Made by a program: the position numbers and the translations under genes. The notes beneath the pieces are model-generated. The model was not told the DNA's origin. It ran no database searches and saw only the letters and a list, made by a program, of their open reading frames with translations. A stretch of DNA of 64,000 nucleotides from Candidatus Giovannonibacteria bacterium (GTDB lineage: Bacteria; Patescibacteriota; Minisyncoccia; UBA11713; 2-01-FULL-45-33): contig CP066687.1 of the NCBI GenBank assembly GCA_016432405.1, positions 347,040 to 411,039 on the forward strand, in the 5' to 3' direction. This document shows positions 5,768-58,484 of the stretch, one piece after another (positions within the stretch are counted from its first letter, which is position 1; every line of letters starts with the position of its first letter).

Positions 5768-5768
5768 A

Positions 5769-6203
5769 ATGGGCAAGAAAAGAATAATTCAAAAAGCGGA
5801 TTTGACTACGGACGAGGGCAGGGCCTCGGCCGTTAGGGTTGCTTCCCCGAAGAAAAAAATTACGGACGGAGTCGTCCATATACTTTCCACTTACAACAAC
5901 ACGATTATTTCCATAAGCGACCAGAGGGGGGACGTGATAATGTCTTCTTCTTCGGGCGCCCTCGGCTTTTCCGGTGCTAAAAAGGGGACGCCGTACGCGG
6001 CGACAAAGCTGGCGGAATTTTTGGGAGACAAAGCCAAGGCCGCCGGTGTGAAAAATTTAAGCGTTTTAGTAAAAGGCGTAGGCGCCGGGAGAGACGCGGC
6101 ATTAAGGTCGCTTGTCGCGCAGGGGTTTGATATTTATTCAATCCGCGACGCAACTCCGGTTCCCCACAACGGCCCGCGTCCGCCGAAACCGAGAAGAGTA
6201 TGA
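5769..6203 (+). CDS. rpsK: 30S ribosomal protein S11
   Basis: HILSTYNNTIISISDQRGDV…GAKKGTPYAA. Confidence 0.9.
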   Translation: MGKKRIIQKADLTTDEGRASAVRVASPKKKITDGVVHILSTYNNTIISISDQRGDVIMSSSSGALGFSGAKKGTPYAATKLAEFLGDKAKAAGVKNLSVLVKGVGAGRDAALRSLVAQGFDIYSIRDATPVPHNGPRPPKPRRV

Positions 6204-28732: not shown

Positions 28733-30029
28733 TAAGGTGCGCACGCGATTTGCTCCGTCTCCGACAGGGTTTTTGCACGTTGGGGGGCTTCGCACGGCGC
28801 TGTATAATTATCTTTTCGCGAAGCAAAATGGAGGCAAATTTATTTTACGCATAGAAGATACTGACCGCGCGCGCACTGTGGAAGGAGCAGAAAAAAATAT
28901 TATTGAGACATTGCGGATTTTCGGACTGGGTTTTGACGAGGGACCGATTCGGCAATCCGATAATTTGGCAAAATATAAAAAATATTCCAAGGAATTGGTA
29001 GCCAAAGGCGCGGCTTACGAAGACGACAGCGCCGTCAGATTTAAAATGCCGAAGGACGGCGTAACTGTCTTTGCCGACATTATTCATGGCGAAATTCAAA
29101 TAGACAATAAGACGCAGGAAGATTTTGTGATTTTAAAATCGGACGGTTTCCCGACTTACAATTTGGCCCATTTGGTTGACGACCACGATATGGCCATAAC
29201 GCATGTCATCAGGGGGGACGAATTTATCTCTTCAATGCCGAAATACATCGCGCTGCATAAAGCATTCGGCTGGGAGCTTCCTCAATATGCCCACCTGCCG
29301 CTTCTTTTGGACAAAAACCGCGCCAAGCTTTCCAAGAGGGAAGGGGAGGTGGCGGTTCATGATTTTTTGGACGACGGATATCTCAAAGAGGCCGTTTTAA
29401 ATTTCGTTGCGCTTTTGGGATGGCACTCGAAAACCGATCAGGAAATTTTTTCATTGGAAGAGTTAATAAAAGAATTTAAGCTTGAGCGCGTTCAAAGAGC
29501 CGGCGCGATTTTTGATACTACGAAACTAGATTGGATGAACGGAGAATATATACAAAAAAAACCCTTAAAAGATTTGGTGGAATTAAGTAGGGGTTTTTTC
29601 CAATTTTCAATTTCCAATTTCCAATTTTCAAATGAATATTTAAAGAAAATCATCGCGCTGGAACAACCTCGCCTTAAAAAACTCTCGGAGCTTCCGGAAA
29701 AAACCAACTATTTTTTTAAAGAACCGGAATATGATGCCACGCTGTTAAAATGGAAAAATATGGATAATAAAGAAATTAAAAAATCGCTGGAAACCTCAAA
29801 AGAAATAATTTCCAATTTCCAATTTCCAATTTCCAAACACGACATAGAAAAAATATTTTTAGAGCGCGCAAAAAAGTTTAAAGATAGGGGAGAACTCTTA
29901 TGGCCCCTCCGGGTTGCCCTAACTGGCAAAAAGGCCTCCCCGGGCCCGTTTGAGATAATGGAGATTTTAGGAAAAGAAAAAAGCATCGCCCGCGTTGCCT
30001 CGGCTTTAAATATGCTAAAACCCCGTTAG
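28725..30029 (+). CDS. gltX: Glutamyl-tRNA synthetase (compact)
   Basis: RFAPSPTGFLHVGGLRTALYNY (HIGH region) and KLSKR (KMSKS variant). Confidence 0.85.
   Translation: MNSKVRTRFAPSPTGFLHVGGLRTALYNYLFAKQNGGKFILRIEDTDRARTVEGAEKNIIETLRIFGLGFDEGPIRQSDNLAKYKKYSKELVAKGAAYEDDSAVRFKMPKDGVTVFADIIHGEIQIDNKTQEDFVILKSDGFPTYNLAHLVDDHDMAITHVIRGDEFISSMPKYIALHKAFGWELPQYAHLPLLLDKNRAKLSKREGEVAVHDFLDDGYLKEAVLNFVALLGWHSKTDQEIFSLEELIKEFKLERVQRAGAIFDTTKLDWMNGEYIQKKPLKDLVELSRGFFQFSISNFQFSNEYLKKIIALEQPRLKKLSELPEKTNYFFKEPEYDATLLKWKNMDNKEIKKSLETSKEIISNFQFPISKHDIEKIFLERAKKFKDRGELLWPLRVALTGKKASPGPFEIMEILGKEKSIARVASALNMLKPR
29600..29632. repeat. 7-bp-period microsatellite (ttccaat/tttcaat units), in-frame inside gltX
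   Basis: ccaattttcaatttccaatttccaattttcaaa encodes FQFSISNFQFS. A second array at 29808..29837 encodes ISNFQFPIS. Related arrays lie at 48144..48186, 54521..54542 and 57492..57537. Confidence 0.7.
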
Positions 30030-33358: not shown

Positions 33359-33451
33359 TTGTTAGCCCTCCTTATTCGGAATTCGGGTTTCTTTACATAG
33401 CTAAGCATATGAACAATAGATTGTCAACAAGATGTGGTACTACCCTCCGCT

Positions 33452-33480
33452 GTCCGACACTTAGTTTCGGACATGACCCC
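33452..33480. repeat. 29-bp element gtccgacacttagtttcggacatgacccc
   Basis: Identical (29 of 29) to the reverse complement of 43783..43810 inside the 16S insertion. It belongs to the CCGAAACTAAGTTTCGG palindrome family. Confidence 0.8.
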
Positions 33481-33562
33481 GGACGATAAAAAATTAAAAA
33501 AGAATTTACGGTGTTGACTTCTTCTACAAGGCCTGTAAACTTGGGATAGAAAGGAGAGTTCA

Positions 33563-34432
33563 ATGAAAATTCTTTTACACGAGGATATTCCTCGCTGGTA
33601 TAGCTTTGAATGGCAGGACAAGCCACCGCGAATACTTGTGTCGATTCACAAACGTTTCTTGGAGCATCTGCGGCCTTATCCAGATGGAGATAGCACCATT
33701 GAGCATCTCAAAGAAGAATTCGGTTTTACAAAGTTTGACTGGAGTTTCCGAAAAGGTTTTGGGTTTGACGACGCGATACGGCTCGTCAAAGATGAAGAAT
33801 TTAAAGTTTTTGAGGCAAGGTTGCCGAAAGTGTTTCAACTGACCGATAAGGTTTGTCGAAATTGTGAAGGCACTGGGCGCGATGAGCTCCGTGGCGGAAA
33901 GTGTCTTTATTGCGAAGGGAAGAAAAAAGAGCACGATTATGTTTGGACTCCAGCTTTCGCTGTTTCGTGCAGCTTGAACCTTTTTCTTGACTCCGCCTAT
34001 TACTTCCAAGAATCTTCTGGAACACCCAAAAAACAGCTTCTGTGCGTCCAATTGCATACTGCTCATGGTATGCATGGTGGAGAGTTGAGCGGTGTATATA
34101 GTCCTTCATTGGTGGAATGGCTTAGAGCGCACCGAGGCCGTATTCCAGAGATGGAAGATGCGATGCGTAGAGCATACGTTAGAATGCTTAGGGCTGATTA
34201 TCTGGATAACTTAAGCTTTATAGCTTCAGTAGAAAACGATAAAGGTTGGCTCAATGTCTCGTGCCCCGGAAGCGCCTGCGGGTTACATCCAACGGATCAT
34301 TTTATGCGCGACGGATATGGTTTTCAATTCAGCTCCCATAACGTGGACACGCCCGCCCAACAATTGACATTGCTAGCAGGGCTGGCGGCTCTCTATAATA
34401 AAGTTGATCAAGATCTCAAGGCAGGGCGCTAA
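33563..34432 (+). CDS. Hypothetical protein with a CxxC…CxxC zinc ribbon
   Basis: Promoter-like TTGACT-N17-TAAACT, SD aaggagag and ATG upstream. CRNCEGTG…CLYCEGKK. Confidence 0.4.
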   Translation: MKILLHEDIPRWYSFEWQDKPPRILVSIHKRFLEHLRPYPDGDSTIEHLKEEFGFTKFDWSFRKGFGFDDAIRLVKDEEFKVFEARLPKVFQLTDKVCRNCEGTGRDELRGGKCLYCEGKKKEHDYVWTPAFAVSCSLNLFLDSAYYFQESSGTPKKQLLCVQLHTAHGMHGGELSGVYSPSLVEWLRAHRGRIPEMEDAMRRAYVRMLRADYLDNLSFIASVENDKGWLNVSCPGSACGLHPTDHFMRDGYGFQFSSHNVDTPAQQLTLLAGLAALYNKVDQDLKAGR

Positions 34433-36469: not shown

Positions 36470-37798
36470 ATGCCGCCGCTTAAAATTTATAATTTTCTAA
36501 GCCGGAAAAAAGAAGTTTTCAGGCCTATAAAGAAAGGGCTGGTCGGTTTTTACGCCTGCGGGCCGACGGTATACGACTACGCCCATATCGGAAACCTCCG
36601 CACCTATATTTTTGAAGATGTTTTGCGGCGCACTCTTGAATACGCGGGATATAAGCTAAAACACGTGATGAATATTACGGATGTGGATGATAAAATAATC
36701 GCCCGCGCGCGCTTGGCCCAAAAAAACATCGGCGATTTCTCCGCGCCGTATAAAACGGCGTTTTTTGGTGACATTAAAAAAATAAATATTTTGCCGGCTT
36801 GGAAATATCCTGAAGCGACCAGGCATATTCCGGAGATGGTTAAGATGGCGAAGCGGCTGCTCCGAAAAAAGATTGCTTATCCCGCGAAAGACGGAATTTA
36901 TTTTGACATTTCAAAATTCAAGTCCTATGGCCGGCTGGCGAACCCGAGGCCGGGCGACAGAAAAGATTTTGTCATTTGGAAGTACGCCAAAAAGAATGAG
37001 CCCTTTTGGAGGTCGCCGTTCGGCCCCGGGCGGCCCGGGTGGCATCTGGAGTGCTCGGCAATGTCAATGAAATATCTGGGAGAGAGTTTTGATATCCACG
37101 CGGGCGGGGTTGATTTACTTTTTCCGCACCACGAAAACGAGATTGCGCAGTCAGAGGGCGCGACTGGCAAAAAATTCGTAAAGTACTTTGTTGAGGGCGA
37201 GCATCTTTTGGTGAACGGCAAGAAAATGTCAAAATCGCTCGGCAATATTTTTACTTTGCGCGATTTGGAGCGGCGAAATTTTAATCCCCTCGCTTTTCGC
37301 TACCTCGTTCTCTCCGCTCATTACCGCTCGCAACTTAATTTCACTTGGGAGTCGCTTAAGGCGGCGGAGAATTCGCTGGAGAGATTGCAGGAGTTTGTGC
37401 TATCGCTTAAATTGACCGAAACTAAGTTTCGGTCAATTACTGACCGAAACTTAGTTTCGGGCAAAGCTTTTCAAAAAGCCATCTGTGACGACCTAAACAC
37501 CCCAAAAGCGCTTGCTGTGGTGTATGCCGTGATGAACGAATATTATACAAATAAGGAAAAATTTGATGCGCGAGCCGTTCTGGCCCTTTTATATGATTTT
37601 GACAAGGTTTTGGGGCTTGGATTGGCCGGTATAGCACCAAAGGCCCCGCCGCCGGAAGCGTTAAAATTGTTGAAAGAGCGCGAGGCGGCAAGAAAATCGG
37701 GCGATTTTAAGAAAGCCGATAAAATTCGTGAAAAAATAAGGCGTTTGGGCTGGCAAATCAAAGATACGCGAACCGGCCCCGAACTTATTCACGCATAA
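36470..37798 (+). CDS. cysS: Cysteinyl-tRNA synthetase
   Basis: CGPTVYDYAHIGN (HIGH) and KMSKSLGN. It contains an in-frame palindromic insertion at 37424..37460. Confidence 0.9.
   Translation: MPPLKIYNFLSRKKEVFRPIKKGLVGFYACGPTVYDYAHIGNLRTYIFEDVLRRTLEYAGYKLKHVMNITDVDDKIIARARLAQKNIGDFSAPYKTAFFGDIKKINILPAWKYPEATRHIPEMVKMAKRLLRKKIAYPAKDGIYFDISKFKSYGRLANPRPGDRKDFVIWKYAKKNEPFWRSPFGPGRPGWHLECSAMSMKYLGESFDIHAGGVDLLFPHHENEIAQSEGATGKKFVKYFVEGEHLLVNGKKMSKSLGNIFTLRDLERRNFNPLAFRYLVLSAHYRSQLNFTWESLKAAENSLERLQEFVLSLKLTETKFRSITDRNLVSGKAFQKAICDDLNTPKALAVVYAVMNEYYTNKEKFDARAVLALLYDFDKVLGLGLAGIAPKAPPPEALKLLKEREAARKSGDFKKADKIREKIRRLGWQIKDTRTGPELIHA
37424..37460. repeat. Dimeric palindromic element gaccgaaactaagtttcggtc-aattac-tgaccgaaacttagtttcgg inside cysS
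   Basis: Encodes TETKFRSITDRNLVSG. A near-identical dimer lies at 50925..50973. Confidence 0.75.
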
Positions 37799-42295: not shown

Positions 42296-42501
42296 GGGTG
42301 TGTAGTTCAGTGGTAGAACGCTGTCCTGACCTGCCCGCCGAACAAACCAAAATTTTGGATGCGTAGTTCAGTGGTAGAACGCTGTCCTGATAAGACAGAG
42401 GTCGGAGGTTCGATCCCTCCCGCATCCATAATCCAAAATTTTGGGTCGGCTTTGGCAGGCGGGTAAGACAGAGGTCCCAGGTTCGATCCCTGGCACACCC
42501 A
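42296..42501 (+). tRNA. Split tRNA-Ile (GAT): exon 1 at 42296..42329, exon 2 at 42464..42501, with a 134-nt insert in the anticodon
   Basis: The exons join to a 72-nt cloverleaf (acceptor gggtgtg/cacaccc, T-stem ccagg/cctgg) with anticodon loop ctGA|Taa. The insert contains a second complete tRNA. Confidence 0.5.
42357..42428 (+). tRNA. tRNA-Ile (anticodon GAT), nested inside the split tRNA
   Basis: Hand fold: acceptor ggatgcg/cgcatcc, D-stem gttc/gaac, anticodon stem ctgtc/gacag, loop ctGATaa, T-arm ggagg-ttcgatc-cctcc. Confidence 0.85.
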
Positions 42502-43373
42502 TAAAATAAAAGCACTTTTTCTTTTGTCCCGGGTCTCGAATTGAAGCTTCCGAGACCAACGCTTCACGTCAAAAATGACGCGATCGACACTTTAATTGTT
42601 GGACGCTCCGACGAAAAGTCGGAGTTGAGTACAAAAATTAAAATTGAAACTCCACGACCAGCTTCCGCTAGCCGTGCCTTGTTACGACTTACTCCCTGTC
42701 ATCCCGCCATCCTTATTCCCCGCTAAGCGGGACTTTTGGGTCGGCGGGACTTCCTTGAGTTGACGGGCGGTGAGTACAAGACTCGAGAACGTATTCACCG
42801 CAGTATAGCTGACCTGCGATTACTAGCGATTCCGTCTTCATGCGCTCGAGTTGCAGAGCGCAATCCGAACTGGGCCGGCCTTTGGTGAGATTAGCTCCGC
42901 CTCGCGGCTTCGCGACTCATTGTGGACGGCATTGTAGCACGTGTGTAGCCCAGGGCATCAAAGGGCCATGCTGACTTGGCGTCATCCCCGCCTTCCTCCC
43001 CGCGGTGCGGGGCAGTCTCTTGTGACACTTGTAACACAAAATAGGGGTTGCGTTCGTTGCCCCACTTAAGGGAACAGCTCAAGCCACGAACTGACGACAG
43101 CCATGCAGCACCTGTCCCGACGTCCTTGTGAGACGCACGCCTTTCGGCGGGCTTATCGTCGGGATTTCAAGCCCTGGTGAGGTTTTTCGTTTAACATCGA
43201 ATTGAACCACATGCTCCACCGCTTGTGCGAGTCCCCGTCTATTCCTTTGAGTTTTAAACTTGCGTTCGTACTTCCCAGGCGGATGACTTAACGCGTTAGC
43301 TTCGCCACTCGAAGGGTCGATACTTCCAATGGCTAGTCATCATCGTTTAGGGCGTGGACTACAAGGGTATCTA

Positions 43374-44003
43374 CAAATTTGTTACAACTCAATTTTACTA
43401 ATCGGTGCTAATTTTTGGAGTCAAGATTGGTGCTTGACAAATAAATTTTTATATGCTATGCTTGATATGGAGGTGATTTATGCTTGTATGGATTTGTGAG
43501 AAAACCGGGCCGCAAGGTTTAGCCCGACTTGTCTACAAAGAGTTCCTCGCGTGGATGCTCCTTGCGTCTTTGCTTGGTCAGGTTTATCTTTTGCTCCGGT
43601 AGAACCGAGGATCAAGCGATAAGAGGGAATGGAATTAAACGCTATTCCCTCTTTTTTATTTCCAAAAATTAGCACCGATTTTTTCTTGAGTGAGCAGAAT
43701 ATTTCTATCTGCTTCTGCATATCGCTATGCAGTTCGGACTATATCATGTCGCCTTTTCGGCGACCTCGGCGTATAGTCTCTACGGGGTCATGTCCGAAAC
43801 TAAGTGTCGGACAGCGGACTTCCCTCGGGATTGTCCTCCGACGCTTCGGCCGGAGGGGTTTCCCCGATATAGCTCCGACGAAAACCTCTCGGTTTTGTCG
43901 GAGTCCGACTTCACTATTAAAATAAATAGTGCGTCGGACCAAGTTTTTTATCCTCGGAATTTATTCCGAGGGGACTAAGCTGCCTTGTAAACAGCATTTG
44001 TTA
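43374..44003 (-). other. Intron-like insertion in the 16S gene at the h24 loop (E. coli position about 788/789)
   Basis: It interrupts the universally conserved GGAT|TAGATACCC block. The 3' two-thirds is dense in hairpins (for example ctccgacgaaaacc/ggttttgtcggag and cctcggaa/ttccgagg). No LAGLIDADG, GIY-YIG or HNH ORF is present. Confidence 0.6.
43407..43673 (+). mobile_element. Cassette with terminal inverted repeats (gctaatttttgg … ccaaaaattagc) carrying promoter, sORF and terminator, embedded in the 16S insertion and antisense to the rRNA
   Basis: TTGACA at 43434-43439, 17-nt spacer, TATGCT. SD ggaggtg and an ATG at 43480 open a 40-codon ORF running to TAG at 43602. Terminator agagggaat…attccctct plus T6. 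Paralog at 56433..56795. Confidence 0.5.
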
Positions 44004-44715
44004 ATCCTTTTTGATCCCCACGCTTTCGTGTTTCAGGGTCAGGAATGCCCCAGCAAGCTGCCTTCGCCTTTGGTGTTCCCCACGATATCAACGGATTTCA
44101 CCCCTACACCGTGAGTTCCGCTTGCCTCTGGCATCCTCCTAGTTTTGCCGTTTCCCGCCCATCTCTCCGGTTAAGCCGGAGTTTTTAAAACGGGACTAAC
44201 AAAACCCCCTACACACCCTTTACGCCCAGTAAATCCGGATAACGCTCGGGCTCCTCGTATTACCGCGGCTGCTGGCACGAGGTTAGCAAGCCCTTATTCT
44301 TAGGGTACAGTCATTTTTTTCCTCCCTTAAAAAAGCAGTTTACGCCCCGAAGGGCTTCCTCCTGCACGCGGCGTCGCTCGATCAGGCTTTCGCCCATTGT
44401 CGAATATTCTCGGCTGCTGCCACCCGTAGGTGTATGGACCGTTCTCAGTTCCATTGGTGGGGGCCAAGCTCTCACTCCCCCTAGCCGTCGTCGCCTTGGT
44501 GGGCCATTACCCCGCCAACAAGCTGATAGCCCGCAGGCCTCTCCCAGAGCCAATCTAAGTGTTTTAATCTCACGATACTATCGGGAATTAGCTCCGCTTT
44601 CGCGGAGTTATGCCCGTCTCTGGGGTGAGTTCCTACGTGTTACTACCCCGTCTGCCACTATCCCGCACCTTTTATTGCTAAAGGGTGCGGGACCGTATGA
44701 CTTGCATGCCTTATC

Positions 44716-44755
<40 letters not shown>

Positions 44756-45058
44756 AATAAGAAAAATTTCTTGCGAAATTTTTCTACTACGGGACAAAAG
44801 AAAAAATGCTCAAAATTTAACTGACTTAATTTTTTGGTGCAATTTTCTAAATTTTCAAGGTTCTCTTTTTGGGTCAAAACTCCTCAACAGGGCTCGGAGT
44901 AAATAAACCCGCGATAAGACCCCAAAGATCCTATCGCGGATTTACTATGCTAATTTTTCAAAATAGATTCAAAATAGATTAAAAGGTATCTGTGCCTCCG
45001 GCCATCTCAATATAAGTTAACCTATAATAATTCCATTATACTCGCCTAAAAAACGCCG

Positions 45059-47619: not shown

Positions 47620-48182
47620 TTTTACAGACCCGCCTGCCGGACGGGCAGGAAGAAAACAAAATATTGCGCAAAAGCGCCGATTCTGTCCAAAGCCAAAACC
47701 TGCCGGAAATTAAGGCGCTCATCAAAAAAATGGCCGCAGCGATGTTCGCGGAGCCCGATGGCATCGGCATTGCCGCTCCGCAAATCGGGGTTTCTCTCCG
47801 GATTTTTTTGGTTGCCAAGGAAGCGGCCGTAAAAAATGCCGAGGAATTGCATGAAAGAATCGGAGATAAAAACAAAAAGAGAAATACAGAGCATTTAGTT
47901 TTCATAAACCCCGTACTCAAAAAATTCTCATCTAAAAAAATAAGGGACGTTGAAGGATGCCTTTCTGTGCGCGGGGTTTACGGCGAGGTGCCGAGGGCGG
48001 AACAAATTACAATTGAGTATTGTGACGAATTCGGGAAAAAGCGTCAGCGCGGCGCCTCGGGGCTTTTTGCGCGGGTCTTACAGCACGAGCTGGATCATCT
48101 GGACGGCATTTTATTTATTGATAAAGCAAAGAACTTGAAACGAATTTCCAATTCTCAATTTCCAATTTCCAATGAAAATTGA
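47616..48182 (+). CDS. def: Peptide deformylase
   Basis: GIGIAAPQIG, EGCLS and QHELDHLDG motifs. The C-terminal tail is built from the 7-bp repeat. Confidence 0.85.
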   Translation: MILQTRLPDGQEENKILRKSADSVQSQNLPEIKALIKKMAAAMFAEPDGIGIAAPQIGVSLRIFLVAKEAAVKNAEELHERIGDKNKKRNTEHLVFINPVLKKFSSKKIRDVEGCLSVRGVYGEVPRAEQITIEYCDEFGKKRQRGASGLFARVLQHELDHLDGILFIDKAKNLKRISNSQFPISNEN

Positions 48183-48186
48183 AAAT
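48144..48186. repeat. 7-bp-period repeat array in inverted arrangement at the def/fmt junction
   Basis: tttccaattctcaatttccaatttccaatgaaaattgaaaatc encodes …ISNSQFPISNEN* and then MKIENLKLKI. Confidence 0.65.
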
Positions 48187-48921
48187 CTAAAATTAAAAAT
48201 TGTTTTTTTCGGCGCTTCGCCGTTTTCATACGTCTATCTTGACGCTCTTAAAAATTCCGGTTTTGAGATTGTCCCGCAAGCCGAGGATGCGGACCTCGGC
48301 GTTATTGCCTACTACGGCAAAATTATACCGAAAGCGGTTTTGGAGCTCCCTAAGTACGGGTTTTTAAATGCCCACCCCTCGCTCCTCCCGCGATGGCGGG
48401 GGGCGTCTCCCGTGCAATCCGCTATTCTGGCCGGGGATAAAATTACGGGTGTAACTATACACATAGCGACGGAGAAGCCGGATGCCGGGCCGATTTTAGC
48501 CCAGAAAAAAATACCAATAGAGCCAAAGGATACTTGTTTAAATTTAACAGGGAAACTCGCCCGGGAAGGCGCCGCGCTTTTAATTCCAACCATTGAAAAA
48601 CAGCTTGCCGGCGAAATCGCGCCAAAAAAACAGGACGATTCCAAAGCGACTTACACCAAGTTGCTTAAGAAAAAAGACGGGGAAATTGACTGGTCAAAGC
48701 CGGCCGACTATATAGAAAAAATGGTACGGGCTTACAGCCCATGGCCGGGGGCGTATACCAGAATGAAGAACGGCAGAATTTTAAAAATAAAAAAGGCAGA
48801 GGTTGTAAATGGAGTTTTAAAGCCCCTCATCGTTCAGCCGGAAGGCAAAAAAGAAATGCCCTGGGAGGCGTTTTTGCGCGGGCACAAAGACGCTATCGAA
48901 ATAACATCGCGGCCCCAATAG
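48172..48921 (+). CDS. fmt: Methionyl-tRNA formyltransferase
   Basis: HPSLLPRWRGASPVQSAIL formyltransferase signature. The def-fmt pair is conserved. Confidence 0.85.
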   Translation: MKIENLKLKIVFFGASPFSYVYLDALKNSGFEIVPQAEDADLGVIAYYGKIIPKAVLELPKYGFLNAHPSLLPRWRGASPVQSAILAGDKITGVTIHIATEKPDAGPILAQKKIPIEPKDTCLNLTGKLAREGAALLIPTIEKQLAGEIAPKKQDDSKATYTKLLKKKDGEIDWSKPADYIEKMVRAYSPWPGAYTRMKNGRILKIKKAEVVNGVLKPLIVQPEGKKEMPWEAFLRGHKDAIEITSRPQ

Positions 48922-49591
48922 CCACTGAGTTTTTGCCAAGCTTAGATTTTTTGACCGGCAAGCCCAGCGTTTTTTGAAGCTTGTCGGAGAAATTTTCTCT
49001 TGCCGCAACTCCACCGCCAATGATAACTTTCTCTGTTTTATAGGTCTCAATAATGCCTTTCAGCTTTTTTGCCAAAAATATTGCGAGTTCGTCGTCATTA
49101 CGGCTATCCCTGATTTCTTTGTACTTTTTTTCCCAGCGCGCCGGGTACTCAAAACTTTTTATTTTTAGAATCTTGCCGTCCTTACTTATCGCGCGGCCGA
49201 TCCCCGTCCCAAGAGTCAGAAAAAGCGTCGTCCGCTTGTCTCTATGTTCGGCCCGCGCGAAACACCTCGCATCGTGGTCAACCTTTACCCCCACACCAAA
49301 CTTTTTGGTGTGGGGGTTTACTTTTGCGCCGCCAAAAAACTCGGCGAAATTAAAATTTCGAATATAGGGCATATTTGTCGCTGAAACAAAAACAGCGCCC
49401 TTTATTCTTCCGGGCACAGCGATACCGATTTTAGAATGGCCCCCAAACAACTTTCTTAGAATTTTTTTAAATCCGCCCAAATTTTTCGGCGTCTTCGCCT
49501 CTCGCGCCGCCAAAACCTTTTTGCCGTCCCACAAAACTGCCCGTATTTTGGACCCGCCGATGTCCAATCCAACAATTATTTTTTTCCTCAT
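48893..49591 (-). CDS. ASKHA-fold sugar kinase (ROK/glucokinase-like), short form
   Basis: N-terminal GLDIGGSKIR. Confidence 0.55.
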   Translation of the reverse strand: MRKKIIVGLDIGGSKIRAVLWDGKKVLAAREAKTPKNLGGFKKILRKLFGGHSKIGIAVPGRIKGAVFVSATNMPYIRNFNFAEFFGGAKVNPHTKKFGVGVKVDHDARCFARAEHRDKRTTLFLTLGTGIGRAISKDGKILKIKSFEYPARWEKKYKEIRDSRNDDELAIFLAKKLKGIIETYKTEKVIIGGGVAARENFSDKLQKTLGLPVKKSKLGKNSVAIGAAMLFR

Positions 49592-50702: not shown

Positions 50703-51359
50703 CTATTTTTTAAACACTATAAATTTAAAACCGGTAAAATTCCAGATAAGCACGGCGATGTTGGCGATAAATTTCGCGTAATTCAGCCATTTTGACGACC
50801 CGACCGTCTCAATGATTGAAGCCGGCGCGTAAGTGGTGAGAACCACAATCAACACGCTGTTTATAATAAGTCCGCCAACGCCAACGGCGAAAAATTTTGG
50901 GAAGTCATGAAACAAGCTGATTTTGTCCGAAACTAAGTTTCGGTCAGTAAGTGACCGAAACTTAGTTTCGGACGTTTCGGACGAAAAAACCCAGAGTTTG
51001 TTCCACAAGTATCCGTTTATCACCGCAATTAAAAATCCGGGCGCATTGACCCAGCCGACAATTATGCCGGCGGTCACGCCTGTAAGATAACTTGTCAGGT
51101 TGAGAACCGCAAAGTCAATCGCCGTGGAAAGAAACCCCGCGGCGGCGTAGCGGCCGAATTGCGAAAAAAACGGTTTCACTCGCGCCCCGAGAAAGTCCCC
51201 GAACCAAACCCCCGCCGCCCAGAGAACCGGCAGTAAAACCAAAGCGGCAAGATTTTGGTACGGGAAAGAAATTTTTAAAAAATACAAAATTGCCAGCGTA
51301 AGCGCCCCGGTCAAAATTCCCGCAACCGCCCCGATCCAATAATCTTTTTTGATAATCAT
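50703..51359 (-). CDS. GtrA-like membrane protein
   Basis: 4-TM GtrA-type topology. It contains an in-frame palindromic insertion. Confidence 0.5.
   Translation of the reverse strand: MIIKKDYWIGAVAGILTGALTLAILYFLKISFPYQNLAALVLLPVLWAAGVWFGDFLGARVKPFFSQFGRYAAAGFLSTAIDFAVLNLTSYLTGVTAGIIVGWVNAPGFLIAVINGYLWNKLWVFSSETSETKFRSLTDRNLVSDKISLFHDFPKFFAVGVGGLIINSVLIVVLTTYAPASIIETVGSSKWLNYAKFIANIAVLIWNFTGFKFIVFKK
50925..50973. repeat. Dimeric palindromic element gtccgaaactaagtttcggtc-agtaag-tgaccgaaacttagtttcggac inside the GtrA-like gene
   Basis: Encodes SETKFRSLTDRNLVSD on the minus strand. Same family as 37424..37460. Confidence 0.75.
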
Positions 51360-53770
51360 AATAATGCCTGATGCCTCCTTCTAATTTCCTCCTCTACTTC
51401 CTCGCGCGGGCGCGAGTATTTGGAGCGCGAGAGCTCTTTTATGTAATCGGCTGTATCCCCGCGGCCGCTTTCCGGAGGCAGAGTTTTTATATTAAAGGGC
51501 TTTGAGGTCTGGCCGTCAATCAGCAATTTGAGATAAGCGCTGAAATTATCAATGTTTAAAAGGTCCTCCGCGGAAAACACCGGCTGGAATTGTTTTTCCA
51601 TATACTCGGCGTCGTCGGAGCCGATTCTAAAAGAGCAGATGGAGCCGACGTTTCCGAAAATCGCCTTTTTAATGTCCTCGTCAAGCTGGCCTATGAACTG
51701 GTGCGCAACTATCATGTTCAATTTATATTTTCTCGCCTCGGAAAGGATTGTGGCAATGGATTTTGTGGTCACGTTTTGAAACTCGTCAATATAGAGGTAA
51801 AAATCGCCGCGCTCTGCCTCCGGTCTGTCCACTCTTGATAGCGAGGCCATTAAAATCTTGCTAACTATAATGAGCCCCAAAAGATTTGAATTGAGCTCGC
51901 CGAGTTTCCCCTTGGATAAATTCAAAAGAAGGATTTTTTTCTGGTCCATAACGCCGCGCAGATTAAAGGCGGACTTTTGCTGGGCGATTATCGGGCGCAT
52001 AATGTCATTGGATAAAAATCCGTCAAACTTGCTCACAACGTAAGTCGCCATGTTGGCAATGGATTGCTCTCCCGAGGCGCGCTCCGCAATCTGCTTCCAA
52101 AAGGTCTCCACGACTATATTTTTGGAGCGCGAGAGCTTAAAGTCGCGGAAGGATTTATCCGCGAAAACCCTCTGGATTTCCAAAAGCGTGTTGCCGCTCT
52201 CCAGGTCTTCCATAACCAGCATCGCCGCGTTTCTGAAGTATTGCTCAAACATCGGCCCTCCGGCAACCGACATATTAAAAAGCTTGTTAAAAATTTCCAA
52301 AAGCTCGTTGACGATTAAACTTTTCTGCTCGGGATAGCGGGGGTCAAACTCCAGCATGTTGAGGCCCATCGGGCGCGCAACATCCCCGGGGTCAAAATAA
52401 ATTACGTCATTTGCGCGCTCTGCAGGAATTAAAGGCAGGATTTTTTCAATAAGGTCGCCGTGCGGGTCCACAATTGCCACCCCCTCGCCGGCCAAAATGT
52501 CCTGACTGACCATGTTTTGCATAAGCGCGGATTTTCCGGTGCCCGTCTGCCCAATGATGTAAAAATGCCTTCTGCGGTCGTCTTTTTTTAGCCGCACTTC
52601 GCGCCCCTCGCCCCGGAATGAGCTTTTGCCGAGCAAAACGCCCTCTTTCGGCAAATTGACCGGCGGAGCGGACTCTTTCGCTTTTAAGGTGCGCACGGAG
52701 GGAGCGGCCTTTTTCAGATATGGAAAATGGTAAATGCTCGCGATTTCCTCAACGTTTAAAATTATTTTGGCTTCTTCGTCAAAAAGGCGGAAAGAAAAAC
52801 GCTCAACCAATTTTCTTAAACGTTTTCCACCAAGCTCTTTAATTTTCAGGCCGTTGCCCTCCGGATTTTCATACTGCAAAAAAGCCCCGGCAAGCCCTTT
52901 CAAAATCTTATCAGCCGAGAGCGCGCTCTCGGCTGAGGCAAGAATGCGTATATTGCATTCAAACGCCGGCTTTGAGGCCTTTTCTTCAAAAAGCTTTGCC
53001 GTTTCTTCGTCGTAACTTGCGCCGCTTTTTTCTTTACCGATCTTTGACGGGGAAAAAATTTTCAAAAACGCTTTCCAAAAACCGCTTTTGCCCAGCGCTT
53101 CTTTTTTACTCTCCCCTTCTTTCATTTTTTTTGCCGCCCCATGCGCGCGGCTTTTGATATTTTCCCCTCCGACTCTCAAAATTATCTGTAAAGCCGCGCC
53201 CTCGCCGAATTCTTTTATGCTGGAGAGAGCCGAAGTTATCGTATCCAACTGATCGCTTCCGGATTTCTGATAGGTTTTTATGGGCAGCAGTTCTGATTCG
53301 GCGGAAAACGCGGAGGCGCCGGCTGTTGCCCCCTCTAAATTGAAAATATTATAATCAGGCCTTCTTTCTATTTTGGCTTCCGGAAAGGCGCCGTGAAGTT
53401 GATTTTGAAGCAGAATTTCATATGCTCTCGGGAAAGCTATGTAGAAAAATATCTCGCTCCCGCGGTTGTGCGCGGCGATCTCAAACGCAAACTGCGGATT
53501 TCCTAAAATTTTGCCGGCGATTCCTCTTCTTTGAACTCCGCCCAAGCCGGTGAGAAAATTTTCCATTTTTAAAATAAAATCCTTCGCCGCCTGCGCCTCC
53601 CCCGCTTTTTCGCCTCTTGCCTCCGGGATACTGACCAGATAAAGTCCCAGGCCAAGCCCGGCGCTTACCCCACTGGAGCGCCTTTCCCTTTTTATCCAAA
53701 TTACGGAAAAAAGCCAGAGCCAGAGCGCCAGCGTTATAAATAAAAAAAGGTAGAAAGCGGCCGGATTCAT
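51356..53770 (-). CDS. VirD4/TraG/TraD-like type IV coupling-protein-family ATPase (two TM helices plus AAA-like domain)
   Basis: Walker A YIIGQTGTGKSAL, IVDPHGDL and Walker B FYLYIDEFQN, then …IVAHQFIGQLDED. 804 aa. Confidence 0.6.
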   Translation of the reverse strand: MNPAAFYLFLFITLALWLWLFSVIWIKRERRSSGVSAGLGLGLYLVSIPEARGEKAGEAQAAKDFILKMENFLTGLGGVQRRGIAGKILGNPQFAFEIAAHNRGSEIFFYIAFPRAYEILLQNQLHGAFPEAKIERRPDYNIFNLEGATAGASAFSAESELLPIKTYQKSGSDQLDTITSALSSIKEFGEGAALQIILRVGGENIKSRAHGAAKKMKEGESKKEALGKSGFWKAFLKIFSPSKIGKEKSGASYDEETAKLFEEKASKPAFECNIRILASAESALSADKILKGLAGAFLQYENPEGNGLKIKELGGKRLRKLVERFSFRLFDEEAKIILNVEEIASIYHFPYLKKAAPSVRTLKAKESAPPVNLPKEGVLLGKSSFRGEGREVRLKKDDRRRHFYIIGQTGTGKSALMQNMVSQDILAGEGVAIVDPHGDLIEKILPLIPAERANDVIYFDPGDVARPMGLNMLEFDPRYPEQKSLIVNELLEIFNKLFNMSVAGGPMFEQYFRNAAMLVMEDLESGNTLLEIQRVFADKSFRDFKLSRSKNIVVETFWKQIAERASGEQSIANMATYVVSKFDGFLSNDIMRPIIAQQKSAFNLRGVMDQKKILLLNLSKGKLGELNSNLLGLIIVSKILMASLSRVDRPEAERGDFYLYIDEFQNVTTKSIATILSEARKYKLNMIVAHQFIGQLDEDIKKAIFGNVGSICSFRIGSDDAEYMEKQFQPVFSAEDLLNIDNFSAYLKLLIDGQTSKPFNIKTLPPESGRGDTADYIKELSRSKYSRPREEVEEEIRRRHQALL

Positions 53771-54198
53771 TTAATTTTTCTGGACTCTAAAAGTTTTTCG
53801 TAATATCTGTCCGCCAGCGTGTCGTGAAATTCATCCAGAATATGCGGATTTTTCAACGCCTGCGCGACTTTCATGGCCGAAGCCATCCCTTTGGTGAGCG
53901 CGAGCTCCACCAGAGAATCAATTATTTCGGCGTGCTCTTTTTCCTGCAGCTCATACGCTTTTTGCTTAGCATCATCGTCCGCAAGCTGGCTTTGCTGAAG
54001 CGGTGTTGGCGATTTTGACCCGGCGGCGTCTTTTATGACTTCTCTAAAAATCTCTTTTTCGTGCTTTTGCTCACCGCTTCCGGCCAGCTCCCTTTTTTTG
54101 GCCTCCAGCCGCTCTTCAAGCAATTTTATTTCCTCGTGTAACCATGATTCAGGCATAATGAAATAATAACATGTTATAATAATTTTATGAAAAACCAC
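53767..54198 (-). CDS. Hypothetical coiled-coil protein, translationally coupled upstream of the VirD4-like gene
   Basis: ORF with ATGA overlap. Charged and helical. Confidence 0.3.
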   Translation of the reverse strand: MVFHKIIITCYYFIMPESWLHEEIKLLEERLEAKKRELAGSGEQKHEKEIFREVIKDAAGSKSPTPLQQSQLADDDAKQKAYELQEKEHAEIIDSLVELALTKGMASAMKVAQALKNPHILDEFHDTLADRYYEKLLESRKIK

Positions 54199-55782
54199 TG
54201 GGTTTTAGTGTTGTTGATATTGGCCTTGGCAGCGTTTTTCCGTTTTTGGGATTTAAAGAGCGCCCCGCCGGGGCTTTGGGCGGATGAGGCAGTAAATGGC
54301 GTCAACGCGCTGCGGGTTATTGAAACTAATCCGCCAGCTGGCGGATGGAAAGTTTTTTATCCGGAAAATTTCGGCCGCGAAGGCCTTTTTATAAACATTC
54401 AATCCGTTTTTGTAAAATCATTCGGCACCGAGCCGTGGGTATTGCGCTTGCCGTCGGCGATATTTGGAGTATTAACTATTTTAGGACTATATTTAATGAC
54501 TTTGGAATTGTTTAGGAATTCGAAATTAGAAATTGAAAATTCTCATGGCGAGTTCATTGCTTTGGCATCATCATTATTTCTCGCCACGAGCTTTTGGCAT
54601 ATTAATTTCTCGCGGATAGGATTCCGCGCGATTATGGCGCCGTTTTTTTTGGTGTGGAGTTTTTATTTTTTACTAAAAGGAACGTCGAGACGTCCGACGT
54701 CCTATGGACGTCGGACGTCCATAATTATTCTCGCCGGCTTCACTTTCGGCCTTGGCTTCCATTCATATATCGCTTATCGCATCGCGCCGGTAATTGCGCT
54801 GTTACCGCTGTGGAAATTTTACAAAAACTGGAAAAATCAGGAAGCCGGACTTCCACTTGGAAGTCCGGCTTCCAAGTACTGCGCTCCGTGCTTTATTGGA
54901 CTTTTTATTTTCGCCGCTTTCATCGCCTCGCTCCCCCTTCTTTGGTATTACGTCCAAAATCCGCAGGATTTTTTGGGGCGGACGGCGGCGATTTCAATTT
55001 TTGACGCTCCCAGCCCGCTCGGACAATTTTCAGAAAATCTTATAAAAACGCTGGGGATGTTCAATATCGCTGGCGATTTCAACTGGCGGCACAATCTCAC
55101 CGGCTCTCCGCAGCTTTGGTGGCCAGTGGGAATTTTATTTTTAATCGGCATATGGAAATCGCTTAAAAAATTACAGTGGCCATATAGTTTTGTGTTGCTG
55201 TGGTTTATAACGATGCTTTTGCCGGTTGCCGTTTCCAATGAATCTTTGCCGCACGCGCTCCGCGCGATTATTTTAATTCCGCCAGCGATGATTTTCGCCG
55301 CCTTGGGGCTAAATTGGCTTTGGGAAAATGTCAAGCCGCAGTTCAGGATTTTTATTTATATTTTTTTGGCCACCGCCGTGCTTCAGGCCTACAGCCAGTA
55401 TTTTTTACACTGGGCGCCGAATTTCAACGTTCATCAGGCATTTCAGACAGAAATTACCGAAAAGGCACGCTGGCTTAAGGCAGAGCCCAAAGACATAAAA
55501 AAATACGTCGTTACCGACGCGGTTGACCAAGCGGACACAACCGGCACGCCGATGTCCTTTCAGCCGATAGTTTTTATCACGGACACCTTTTATTCGCAGA
55601 AACAGGCGGAGAAAAATATTTATTATATTTCTTTAAAGAATCTTGATTACGCGGATTGTTCCCAAAAATGCGAGTTTCTGCCCGTGGAATACCGCCCAGC
55701 TATTTTTAAAACAATCAAACAAAAAATCCCGGGCTTGCGCTTAGACGCCTCTTCGGGATTTGTGGTATTAAAAAATTATTGA
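54187..55782 (+). CDS. GT39/ArnT-family glycosyltransferase (PMT_2-like)
   Basis: N-terminal WADEAVNGVNALRVIE and more than 10 TM helices. Paralog of 56820..58484. Confidence 0.65.
   Translation: MKNHWVLVLLILALAAFFRFWDLKSAPPGLWADEAVNGVNALRVIETNPPAGGWKVFYPENFGREGLFINIQSVFVKSFGTEPWVLRLPSAIFGVLTILGLYLMTLELFRNSKLEIENSHGEFIALASSLFLATSFWHINFSRIGFRAIMAPFFLVWSFYFLLKGTSRRPTSYGRRTSIIILAGFTFGLGFHSYIAYRIAPVIALLPLWKFYKNWKNQEAGLPLGSPASKYCAPCFIGLFIFAAFIASLPLLWYYVQNPQDFLGRTAAISIFDAPSPLGQFSENLIKTLGMFNIAGDFNWRHNLTGSPQLWWPVGILFLIGIWKSLKKLQWPYSFVLLWFITMLLPVAVSNESLPHALRAIILIPPAMIFAALGLNWLWENVKPQFRIFIYIFLATAVLQAYSQYFLHWAPNFNVHQAFQTEITEKARWLKAEPKDIKKYVVTDAVDQADTTGTPMSFQPIVFITDTFYSQKQAEKNIYYISLKNLDYADCSQKCEFLPVEYRPAIFKTIKQKIPGLRLDASSGFVVLKNY
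54689..54720. repeat. Palindromic element gacgtccgacgtcc-tat-ggacgtcggacgtc, in-frame (encodes RRPTSYGRRTS)
   Basis: Identical core to 58054..58085. Same family as 46866..46907. A 7-bp repeat lies upstream at 54521..54542. Confidence 0.75.
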
Positions 55783-55821
55783 ACTATACAAGTACTCACG
55801 ATCGTATAAATTTGTATAGAC
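55781..55821. repeat. Direct repeat downstream of Cas2-like copy 3 (actatacaagtactcacgatcgtataaatttgtatagac)
   Basis: Matches 56373..56413 (actatacacttttacacgatcgttggaatttgtatagac). The core is 22 of 25 identical. Confidence 0.7.
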
Positions 55822-56372: not shown

Positions 56373-56413
56373 ATACTATACACTTTTACACGATCGTTGG
56401 AATTTGTATAGAC
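56373..56413. repeat. Direct repeat upstream of Cas2-like copy 3
   Basis: See 55781..55821. It is followed immediately by the TIR cassette. Confidence 0.7.
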
Positions 56414-56432
56414 CATTGTGAATTAATCCGGT

Positions 56433-56795
56433 ACTAATTTTCGGAGTCAAGGATTGGTGCTTGACAGGCTAAAATTAGATATGGTAAACTTCAACAAGAA
56501 TAAGGAGGGAAGGAGGGCTAGAGTATGATAGAGATAACAGAGTGTAAGGATAGCATAATCATTATTTCTTGGCATCCAGGACACTTTACAGCAAACGAGG
56601 GCGCACAGCATGACCGTATCAGAGATTTAATGAGGAGGGGCTATAGACTGATTTCCAACGGAGTAACGTCTGAAGGAGCTATCACGTTACAAGCAATTCC
56701 TCCTGTTACCAAAGACTGAAGAATGATATGTCCTGCATCCGTACAGATGGCGCATCGCTTTTATAGATGCGCTATTTCTTTTTCCAAAAATTAGC
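56433..56795 (+). mobile_element. Second copy of the TIR cassette with promoter, sORF and terminator
   Basis: actaattttcggagtcaaggattggtgcttgaca matches the 16S-insert copy. TTGACA is at 56461. SD aaggagggaaggaggg opens a 64-codon ORF at 56525..56719. Terminator gcgcatc…gatgcgc plus T-run. Right TIR ccaaaaattagc is at 56784. Confidence 0.5.
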
Positions 56796-56819
56796 GCTAT
56801 TTAATGATAGAATGAGGGT

Positions 56820-58484
56820 ATGGATAAATATGCCAATGTTTTAGCGGTTTTGATGCTTGTAGCGATGTTCGGGCTGATGCTTGCTTCCAGTTGGAACGAT
56901 TCGGCGATTTTTGACGAGGTGGCGCATATCGGCGCGGGTTATACTTATCTTAAATATCTGGACGGGCGGTTAAATCCGGAGCACCCGCCGCTTCTCAAGA
57001 GCATGGCCGCTTTGCCGCTTTTGTTTTTATCCGCCAGTGGGCGGATTAAAGAAAATATCGCGGCGCAGCCATTTTGGACTATGGAGAATGTAAATGACCG
57101 CCAATGGGCCACGGGTAATTATCTTTTATATGAGGCGGGCAATGACGCGGACCGGATTCTTTTCTGGTCGCGCCTGCCGATGATTCTGCTTACGATATTG
57201 TTTGGCTGGATATTATTTTCTTGGGTAAAAAAGCGCTATGGCGCAGCGGTGGGGTTGCTTACTTTGTTTTTCTTCGCTGTCTCCCCCACTTTTTTGGCGC
57301 ATGGCCGATACGTAACAACAGACGTCGGCGCCGCGCTCGGATTTTTCCTGGGAATAATTTTCTTTTTGCGGTTTTTGGAACGGCAAGATTTAAAGTCAGC
57401 AACTTGGCTCGGTGTAGTGTTGGGGCTTGTCTTGCTTTTTAAATTCTCTTTAGTTTTATTACTCCCGATTTATTTAATAATTTTAATATTTAAAAATTGG
57501 AATTTGATTGAAAATTGGAAATTGAAAATTAGAAATTTAGCGTTAGCCACCATTATCGCGCTCGCTGTAATTTACGCCGCGTATATTCCGCAAATCTGGG
57601 GTTATCCGCATGACCAGCAGATGAAAGACGCGCGCTACATCCTTGCCGGCTATCAGTATCCCTCTTTGGCCAAGCTGGATTTTTGGCTGACCGAACAAAC
57701 GCTCACAAGGCCGCTTGGGCTTTACCTGCAAGGATTTTTGATGGTTGCGCGGCGCACCGCCGGTGGGAACACGGCCTATTTTATGGGTGAAATTTCATCA
57801 AAAGGATGGTGGTCCTATTTTCCGGTTCTGGCAATCACAAAAGAACAGCTGGGGTTTTATATTCTGGCGATAATTGCTTTATTTACGGCGATTAAGAATC
57901 GGGCTCGGCCGGATTTTAATTCGCTCGCGGCTATTATTTTTATAATTTTTTACTGGGCAAGCTCAATTTTAAATCCTCTTAACATCGGCGTACGGCATGT
58001 TCTGCCGACTTTCCCTTTTCTTTACTTTTTGGTTGCGAAAGGCTTAATTTCAGGACGTCCGACGTCCTATGGACGTCGGACGTCCATATATTTAATTAGC
58101 ACTTGGATGATTATAGAAACACTTTTTGCTTTCCCATATTATCTTTCTTACTACAACATTTTGGGCGGCGGCGAAGAAAACGGATATAAAATCGCAACCG
58201 ATTCAAACTACGACTGGGGGCAAGACCTAAAACGTTTGACGTTTTGGGTGAAAGAAAACAATCTAGATAAAATTTATCTTGATTATTTCGGAGGCGGCTC
58301 GCCTAAATATTATCTGGGCGATAAATTTGAGCCGTGGTGGCCAGCAAAGGGCGCACCTCCCCGGGAAAGCTATTTCGCGATCTCTATAAATAGTTTAGCC
58401 GGGTCGGAGAATTTATATCCTTGGCTGAAAAGTAAAAACCTCGCTGCGCGCGCCGGCAGTTCAATCTTAATCTACAGGTTTTAA
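56820..58484 (+). CDS. GT39/ArnT-family glycosyltransferase, paralog
   Basis: WNDSAIFDEVAHIGAGYTYL and more than 10 TM helices. It carries the 7-bp repeat (57492..57537) and the palindrome (58054..58085) at positions equivalent to those in its paralog. Confidence 0.65.
   Translation: MDKYANVLAVLMLVAMFGLMLASSWNDSAIFDEVAHIGAGYTYLKYLDGRLNPEHPPLLKSMAALPLLFLSASGRIKENIAAQPFWTMENVNDRQWATGNYLLYEAGNDADRILFWSRLPMILLTILFGWILFSWVKKRYGAAVGLLTLFFFAVSPTFLAHGRYVTTDVGAALGFFLGIIFFLRFLERQDLKSATWLGVVLGLVLLFKFSLVLLLPIYLIILIFKNWNLIENWKLKIRNLALATIIALAVIYAAYIPQIWGYPHDQQMKDARYILAGYQYPSLAKLDFWLTEQTLTRPLGLYLQGFLMVARRTAGGNTAYFMGEISSKGWWSYFPVLAITKEQLGFYILAIIALFTAIKNRARPDFNSLAAIIFIIFYWASSILNPLNIGVRHVLPTFPFLYFLVAKGLISGRPTSYGRRTSIYLISTWMIIETLFAFPYYLSYYNILGGGEENGYKIATDSNYDWGQDLKRLTFWVKENNLDKIYLDYFGGGSPKYYLGDKFEPWWPAKGAPPRESYFAISINSLAGSENLYPWLKSKNLAARAGSSILIYRF

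Follow-up and report, generated by a model that had tools for sequence, protein, structure and literature searches.

What is the palindromic sequence that recurs in protein genes, in intergenic DNA and inside the 16S rRNA gene of a Candidatus Giovannonibacteria genome (Parcubacteria/Candidate Phyla Radiation, CPR), and how is it tolerated within essential genes? The question was addressed in a stretch of 64,000 nt of this genome, called here the window, in which the element is found in cysS, encoding cysteine--tRNA ligase, and in a gene of the GtrA family. The initial annotation had described it as a proliferating element, similar either to a miniature inverted-repeat transposable element (MITE) or to a repetitive extragenic palindromic sequence (REP). 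We consider it probable that the unit is a REP, that a pair of units forms a doublet similar to a REPIN (REP doublet forming a hairpin) and that the protein encoded beside such units in related genomes is a REP-associated tyrosine transposase (RAYT). The element would then belong to a REP/REPIN family of Candidatus Giovannonibacteria, spread by RAYT and kept in frame within genes.

A family of palindromic repeats is present in the window, as had been proposed. The motif CCGAAACTAAGTTTCGG, searched with up to 3 mismatches, gave 14 strand-hits at 8 positions for 0.47 expected, and 14 hits were reached in 0 of 100 shuffles. Genuine units occupy six of the eight positions; four of them build two doublets and the other two are singlets. 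Positions 4473 and 56428, with 3 mismatches each, look like chance matches. The basic unit is a palindrome of ~23 nt (TGWCCGAAACTWAGTTTCGGWCA), not the 17-bp unit described before, and a doublet consists of two such units in inverted orientation around a 5-nt loop (rather than a 6-nt gap), so that its canonical form is 23+5+23 = 51 nt, or 17 codons. A single arm is itself almost palindromic (GWCCGAAAC-TWA-GTTTCGGWC). Arm 2 is the inverted copy of arm 1, with TAA versus TTA at the centre. The doublets of the window are near-identical copies of 49-53 nt with arms of 22-24 nt that are 96-100% complementary. Units are bordered throughout by T/TT-G...C-A/AA, which belongs to the palindrome itself.

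The doublet in cysS lies at 37412..37464 on the + strand and reads TTGACCGAAACTAAGTTTCGGTCA / ATTAC / TGACCGAAACTTAGTTTCGGGCAA, with 24-nt arms (96% complementary) and a 5-nt loop. The host gene had been correctly named, but the interval given for this doublet, 37424-37460, was too short. The location of the doublet in the GtrA-family gene was confirmed at 50925..50973 (- strand), where it is a perfect 22+5+22 palindrome. Next to it, at 50974..50982 (- strand), the end of the doublet is duplicated in tandem over 9 nt (GTTTCGGAC twice on the + strand). As read from the sequence, the translation here is SSETSETKF, a second 'SET' triplet having been gained in frame. The RNA folding check proposed earlier returned a single strong hairpin for each doublet, with -34.9 kcal/mol (z -10.6) for cysS and -37.9 kcal/mol (z -11.4) for gtrA.

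The + strands of the cysS and gtrA doublets are 96% reverse-complementary. With the two host genes also on opposite strands, the doublets agree in orientation relative to their coding strands, contrary to the first description. The peptides had been correctly translated: the cysS doublet gives LTETKFRSITDRNLVSGK, and the gtrA doublet with its flanks gives SETKFRSLTDRNLVSD. Two of the three phases of the element run into TAA or TAG in the CTAAG/CTTAG centres. The single open phase encodes (S/T)ETKFRS-xx-DRNLVS, which takes the form [E/Q]TKFRS-xx-D[R/L]NLV[S/W] across the family. A near-identical peptide is obtained from either strand because the DNA is palindromic, and the peptide common to cysS and gtrA, which had been thought remarkable, follows from this palindromy and from the single stop-free frame. 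Neither interval quoted in the initial annotation (37 and 49 nt) is a multiple of 3, contrary to what was stated there; the canonical 51-nt doublet is, and with 17 codons it leaves the reading frame unshifted. Five independent host sites (cysS, gtrA, map, miaA and an ileS-like gene) all carry the element in the open phase, for which the probability without translational selection is (1/3)^5 = 0.004. This phase bias argues that the inserts are translated and have been filtered by selection.

The cysS gene (36470..37798, + strand) encodes 442 aa and matches Pfam PF01406 (tRNA-synt_1e, E 7.5e-103), DALR_2 and CysS_C. The protein is 100% identical to a Ca. Giovannonibacteria protein at NCBI whose 651,549-nt contig also carries GtrA, and the same CysS with its insert is present in assemblies from separate read sets. 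The doublet is located in the interdomain linker that joins the catalytic domain to the DALR domain, and this linker is occupied entirely by the 17 repeat-encoded residues. Alignment of CysS orthologs showed a highly variable linker length but no added length. A pure insertion in cysS was ruled out on the ground that the linker is no longer than in orthologs lacking the element. Instead, the element occupies a permissive, hypervariable linker of 16-17 residues, which it has probably replaced. In a CysS ortholog with 77% identity (L130), a perfect 23+5+23 variant doublet is found at the identical codon position. The relative GCA_041643115.1, whose gtrA site is empty, has a decayed inverted repeat of 49 nt in the CysS linker. 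The AlphaFold model of CysS, built from a 24-sequence alignment, was poor (predicted local distance difference test, pLDDT, 62.6), and in it insert residues 318-330 form a low-confidence loop between two helices. The CysS linker of other Giovannonibacteria (P0002/P0016, P0006/P0009/P0019, P0008; L131, L132) holds other repeat-like inserts. One of them is KPGFKS..KPGFF, encoded by AAAACCGGGTTTT / AAAACCCGGTTTT; others are SRLTLPRS.GGSDASQK and TLGVGSPKTPSV. The linker appears to be a recurrent landing site for repeats.

The gene of the GtrA-family membrane protein (50703..51359, - strand; 218 aa; Pfam PF04138, E 1.1e-13) also encodes a product 100% identical to a Ca. Giovannonibacteria protein at NCBI. 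Its doublet is placed in the loop directly after the conserved NKLWVF motif. Seven GtrA orthologs of 202 or 212 aa (80-85% identity) are without the segment, and four others have the variant QT[KR]FRS..D[LP]NLVW at the same site. Presence and absence were confirmed by DNA alignment of filled sites (the window, L121 and L124) with an empty one (L123). The gtrA segment is a true insertion, polymorphic for presence and absence. Survival of the element in frame within essential genes, as first suggested, agrees with the open-phase copies and with the element-free GtrA orthologs, but the accompanying idea of a plain insertion in CysS does not stand. The repeat peptide was not found in distant CysS or GtrA lineages in the ortholog alignments, so that the alternative of an ancestral peptide, raised in the initial annotation, was not borne out. 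The GtrA gene of genome MFHO01 (L083, 6654-6674) has only one unit at this site (DRNLVSD), joined to an unrelated hairpin with an 8-bp stem (CGCCTCGC...GCGAGGCG). Such an arrangement suggests turnover or decay of a doublet to a singlet.

Further copies exist in other genes and in other genomes, as the first description had implied. Metagenomes of the Joint Genome Institute (JGI) were searched with a specific doublet pattern. The five matching loci were all intragenic (5/5) and all in the open phase (5/5), their hosts being the methionine aminopeptidase Map (two alleles), MiaA, an IleRS-like class I synthetase and GtrA. No Map, MiaA or IleS gene for a comparison of filled and empty sites is present in the window. 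In related genomes, single units also occur in frame within genes and in intergenic DNA. No units were found in ~53 kb from relatives without the element in cysS or gtrA. A genome collection was also scanned with the degenerate 17-mer CCGAMACTWAGTKTCGG. With this loose pattern, the matches listed (at least 120) were mostly Bacteroidota terminator hairpins, plus Giovannonibacteria contigs including the RAYT loci. Scans of viral contigs for the unit and for the doublet gave no matches.

Nine doublets were compared. In the arm-to-arm helix 96.6% of cells are paired and 5 pairs have changed on both sides; the covariation score of this helix was reached by 0 of 500 shuffles. A model of two independent small hairpins was rejected against that of a single long hairpin, unit self-pairing being 89.4% with 1 doubly changed pair. 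In the CCCAAAC...TTTAGG lineage the small hairpin is broken and the long one is kept. The 5-nt loop varies freely. These comparisons partly show that the symmetry between arms is kept by paired changes. Sub-variants are common to copies in different genes of one sample (TGACCC... in L125, L126 and L128; TGCCCC... in L127 and L129), and orthologous copies differ between lineages. This looks as if copies were homogenized within each genome or were turned over at hot spots. The cysS and gtrA sites are common to related species, and the copies are therefore old.

A candidate enzyme was found in relatives. In L085, three units within 700 nt bracket an open reading frame (ORF) of 216 aa on the minus strand at 5420-6070. 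Its product contains the motifs YHVY, NHFHLIL (HUH motif) and YAHLNP and matches Pfam Y1_Tnp (PF01797) with 26.4 bits, above the gathering cut-off of 23. One unit precedes the start codon by ~16 nt, another overlaps the stop codon and the third is inside the gene. The REP-RAYT-REP layout was found in six loci of related Patescibacteria genomes (L085, L101, L075, L134, L135 and the distant L072), with units on both sides in 6/6. The L101 and L075 proteins are 69% identical; that of L072 is 27% identical and comes with a diverged unit. At RAYT loci one unit is about 10-30 nt upstream of the start codon, and another overlaps the stop codon and produces the C-termini DRN*, DLN* or DLNQVWD. RAYT genes of the Giovannonibacteria clade have an additional unit inside the ORF, encoding D[RL]NLV[SW]D. 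A unit variant centred on CCAGG at the L134 RAYT is likewise found in the L121 gtrA doublet, and the unit variant co-varies with the RAYT lineage.

Residues H85, H87, Y145 and N149, which include the HUH histidines and the catalytic Tyr, are invariant in the RAYT alignment. A search of RAYT against PDB sequences with phmmer gave no match. The AlphaFold2 (AF2) model of the homolog P0202 (pLDDT 91.6) has as its top PDB match 4ER8_A, the E. coli TnpA-REP with a REP hairpin (E 6.2e-6, target-normalized template modelling score, TM-score, 0.69), followed by the ISDra2 and IS608 TnpA. Since the RAYT gene of relatives is flanked by the unit and its product is predicted to have a TnpA-REP-like fold, the unit would be a REP. 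The same REP unit is also present at six places in the metagenome-assembled genome (MAG) CAZXFC01 (L101, L041, L046, L091, L120), which is labelled 'Candidatus Saccharibacteria' and whose RAYT is 69% identical to that of Giovannonibacteria. Either CAZXFC01 has been mislabelled taxonomically or the REP-RAYT pair has passed from one CPR lineage to another.

The 16S rRNA gene at 42640..44761 (- strand) has 2122 nt including an insertion. The insertion, of 635 nt, is at 43367..44001 (- strand) in the universally conserved 790 loop (GGAUUA / insertion / CCUUGUAG; gap of 635 in the SSU model versus 5). It contains a putative core of a group I intron (43715-43937, - strand; RF00028), matched over the full model 1-253 with 38.8 bits and E 2.6e-8, below the gathering score of 50, and with the conserved R and S elements AGAGACUAUA and GAUAUAGUCC. 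The monomer first noticed inside this insertion is indeed there. By alignment to the P6 region of RF00028, the REP unit at 43783..43818 (- strand) would form the P6 stem-loop of the intron. The intergenic copy at 33446..33481 (+ strand), between a DUF5317 gene and ORF 33563-34432, consists of one REP unit (TGTCCGACACTTAGTTTCGGACA, 33451-33473) with 5 and 8 nt of flank. The identity of this copy with the one in the 16S insertion, first noticed over 29 nt, was confirmed and is longer: 33446-33481 and the reverse complement of 43783-43818 are identical at 36/36 positions.

A segment with matching flanks (GGGAAGTCC.CTGT-unit-CATGACCCCGTA) is present in genome MFHO01 (L080), so the flanks are native to introns. 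As the intergenic 36-mer carries these intron-native flanks, it is most likely a recent-looking copy of the intron unit together with its flanks. The sharp borders of the 36-mer, 5 and 8 nt past the unit, would fit a cut-and-paste enzyme that cleaves away from the hairpin. L080 was ruled out as a homolog of the 16S intron since its copy is in the 23S/5S region; the 23S gene of L080 is also interrupted. Beyond the intron core, about 350 nt of the 16S insertion match no assigned feature. Downstream of the core, 43399-43458 is 82.5% identical over 63 nt to the opposite strand of 56424-56486, which is mostly intergenic and begins inside the 3' arm of a palindrome at 56376-56411. Both segments hold the small hairpin GTCAAGCACCAATC(C)TTGAC.

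The following mechanism can be proposed by analogy with the E. coli TnpA-REP and the IS200/IS605 TnpA. RAYT, which belongs to the HUH/Y1 enzymes, would bind to the hairpin formed by single-stranded DNA, cut it and rejoin it, thereby spreading copies in trans. Because the host genomes have little intergenic space, copies would persist within genes. Selection would keep only the open-phase copies, in surface loops of variable length such as the interdomain linker of CysS and the central loop of GtrA. Single units are found between genes, within genes and, in rRNA group I introns, as the P6 hairpin.

Several points weigh against a RAYT-spread family. No unit has the GTAG or CGTC tag by which described REPs are usually marked. 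Copy number is modest, with 6 units per 64 kb; at the density of the window, 0.09 per kb, roughly 60 units would be expected in 651 kb. Tblastn detected no RAYT gene in the 64-kb window, where the best profile HMM E-value was 0.95, and the 651,549-nt contig of the CysS and GtrA proteins is not on record for any of the best 120 RAYT homolog clusters. The cognate transposase suggested in the initial annotation was thus found in related genomes but not in the window or among the records of its contig. The genome may lack RAYT, and its copies may be immobile relics. The PCMT-YceG synteny block, the neighbour of RAYT in relatives, is not in the window either. The L085 protein scores 32.6 (E 6.6e-8) with the NCBIfam model REP_Tyr_transpos, below the curated cut-off of 80, and the RAYT profile gave weak matches to PDB transposases (E 0.007-0.06), which made the fold comparison necessary. 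At gtrA and cysS the host loops have diverged too far for a clean junction between filled and empty sites, or a target duplication, to be defined, and the element adds no length to CysS relative to orthologs that lack it. Finally, transposition, cleavage and translation of the element are inferred indirectly.

One half of the first proposal, the MITE, is not supported: the whole element is one hairpin, and neither terminal inverted repeats combined with duplications of the target site nor direct repeats at its borders were seen when filled and empty sites were compared. The 9 nt repeated at 50965-50982 come from the end of the element itself and do not represent a duplicated target. The other half, a REP with its RAYT, is upheld by the six RAYT loci and the fold match to 4ER8. 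The palindrome could also be an orphan selfish element of the Rickettsia palindromic element (RPE) type, spread or homogenized by recombination, gene conversion or some unspecified route, RAYT being merely another locus at which copies accumulate. The low copy number would fit, as would the failure to find RAYT in the window or to trace it to this genome, and gene conversion could produce the coordinated lineage differences at orthologous sites. We nevertheless judge this unlikely, given that units have fixed positions on both sides of RAYT in 6/6 loci against a background of ~0.1 per kb, that the fold is that of an enzyme known to bind REP hairpins and that the unit variant changes together with the RAYT lineage.

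A module selected by the host is a quite improbable alternative. Here the peptide of 16-17 residues, or the 23-bp hairpin in mRNA or DNA (e.g. as a site for RNase III or a binding protein, or as a translational pause), would be retained for its function and not for mobility. Retention at the same cysS and gtrA sites across species with 77-82% protein identity speaks for function, together with the great stability of the hairpin and a stem kept by compensatory changes around a free loop. However, the same DNA recurs in genes for unrelated proteins, between genes and in an rRNA intron, close orthologs function without the insert, and the peptide is dictated by the DNA through its one open frame. 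Moreover, unrelated palindromic inserts in the same loops of other lineages point to permissive sites, not to a required module. Another origin would be the mobile rRNA group I introns, the units being fragments from their P6 hairpin that spread, e.g. through reverse splicing or recombination, with no transposase. It draws on the unit being P6 of the 16S intron, on the same flanked segment in the 23S region of MFHO01 and on the intron-native flanks of the intergenic 36-mer. Yet only that 36-mer has intron flanks, the gene doublets and the RAYT-flanking units having just the unit in common with the intron, and neither the inverted doublet architecture nor the REP-RAYT-REP layout is explained; this origin is very improbable. 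Chance similarity or an assembly artefact, for which only the short motif length would speak, is hardly credible when 0/100 shuffles reach the count, the copies of 49-53 nt are near-identical and the insert recurs in independent assemblies and metagenomes. A REP/REPIN family spread by RAYT thus remains the favoured explanation.

A wider view is possible but doubtful: in ultra-compact CPR genomes, REPINs might live mainly in essential genes, as translated surface loops of 17 residues, and in rRNA introns, more than in extragenic DNA, being long kept at orthologous sites and homogenized with a lineage-specific RAYT that carries its own unit. If so, the long-term association of REPIN and RAYT would extend into the proteome, and 23-bp mRNA hairpins would be candidate regulators of housekeeping genes, e.g. 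through RNase III.

Other palindromic repeats were observed in the window. A perfect 'double palindrome' of 34 nt (TTTCCGCCAAAGGCGGATCCGCCTTTGGCGGAAA) at 1529-1562 is read in frame as SAKGGSAFGGK within a long ORF. Near-identical in-frame copies were seen in L083 and, at the GtrA C-terminus, in L121/L122, and the same peptide ends the GtrA orthologs P0124, P0136 and P0176. This repeat is a second in-frame family. Two large membrane-protein ORFs, 54148-55782 and 56811-58484, contain an identical palindrome of 35 nt, GACGTCCGACGTCC-TAT-GGACGTCGGACGTC, at 54689-54719 and 58054-58084, read in frame as RPTSYGRRTS; the ORFs are non-homologous at those positions. The palindrome contains CGTC and may be a REP of the CGTC type. 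Other lineages have a related peptide, TSDVD..STSDV, in their GtrA loop (P0140, P0145). A palindrome of 34 nt at 54840-54873 (GGAAGCCGGACTTCCACTTGGAAGTCCGGCTTCC) is in frame (EAGLPLGSPAS) in ORF 54148-55782; its near-identical copy in L131 (2698-2731), from a relative, is likewise in frame, in a gene for a GltX-like tRNA synthetase. It makes a third in-frame family. These unrelated families of in-frame 'double palindromes' suggest that such repeats could be a general mode of protein variation in the lineage. Perfect hairpins were also noted at 52911-52936 (TCAGCCGAGAGCG/CGCTCTCGGCTGA), inside the 804-aa ORF 51356-53770, and at 49287-49317 (ACCCCCACACCAAA...TTTGGTGTGGGGGT), inside ORF 48893-49591. 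Two similar palindromes of 36 nt (CTATACA...ACGATCGT...TGTATAG; 55784-55819 and 56376-56411) lie 590 nt apart between ORFs 54148-55782 and 56811-58484 and could serve as operators or delimit a small element.

The 3' half of the tRNA-Ile gene (42356-42429) is repeated 73 nt downstream (42391-42438 versus 42464-42511) with 81% identity and a compensated T-arm. ARAGORN called no tRNA at 42464-42511, which may be a tRNA fragment or pseudogene beside the rRNA operon. Tandem motifs resembling the heptamers AATTTCC/AATTTTC were found at 29602-29646, 29807-29851, 48143-48204 and 57476-57537. The copy at 48143-48204 overlaps annotated ORFs and is inverted with respect to that at 57476 (62 nt, 77% complementary).

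For annotation, ETKFRS..DRNLVS, SAKGGSAFGGK and RPTSYGRRTS in CPR proteins are to be taken as repeat-encoded loop inserts and not as domains. Such inserts can be misleading in alignments, in clustering and in the prediction of structures. Different palindromic families have repeatedly entered the same protein loops, and their positions amount to a natural map of where insertions are permitted.

REPINs and RAYTs are well characterized (PMC3116915, PMC5581495). The present family resembles REP/REPIN-RAYT systems (Nunvar 2010; Bertels & Rainey 2011, PMC3116915; 4ER8) in the short palindromic unit repeated through the genome, in the inverted doublets that form one long hairpin and are better conserved than single units, and in the unit-flanked Y1/HUH gene of relatives, with its TnpA-REP-like fold and its lineage-specific unit variants. 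It differs in having no GTAG tag and apparently few copies rather than hundreds, and in the compact 51-nt doublet with a 5-nt loop, the spacing of Pseudomonas REPINs being 71-110 nt. REPs are typically extragenic, whereas here all doublets (2 in the window and 5/5 in metagenomes) and several single units are inside ORFs; in relatives, one unit is even inside the RAYT ORF and another overlaps its stop codon. No report of REPs for CPR/Patescibacteria lineages was found in the searchable literature. Intragenic REPs in frame, over half of them dimers, adding ~20-30 residues to proteins that include tRNA synthetases, were described by Di Nocera et al. 2013 (PMC3733652) and were regarded by these authors as tolerated insertions. 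The families concerned are GTAG/CGTC-tagged and mostly extragenic, only a minority of copies being within genes (Opitutus terrae, Rickettsia conorii and others), whereas the present ones are tagless and every sampled doublet is intragenic. With IS200/IS605 (IS608, ISDra2 TnpA) the enzyme superfamily and the hairpin-based recognition of ends in single-stranded DNA are in common. IS200/IS605 are, however, autonomous self-copying elements with distinct left and right ends, whereas here short hairpins multiply and not the transposase gene.

The palindromic elements of Rickettsia, the classic case, resemble the present element as palindromic repeats in frame within functional ORFs. In work by Ogata and co-workers from 2000, they were reportedly found in frame in housekeeping genes of a reduced genome, where they add surface peptides and occupy orthologous sites among species. 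RPE-1 is about 100-150 bp long and is not known to have a transposase. The present element is set apart by its length of 49-53 nt and by the cognate RAYT identified in relatives. As both the mechanism and the in-frame phenomenon were already known, the conceptual advance is moderate. The family would extend REP/REPIN-RAYT systems, mostly studied in Proteobacteria, to the Candidate Phyla Radiation, in a compact doublet form that persists inside aminoacyl-tRNA synthetase and other housekeeping genes.

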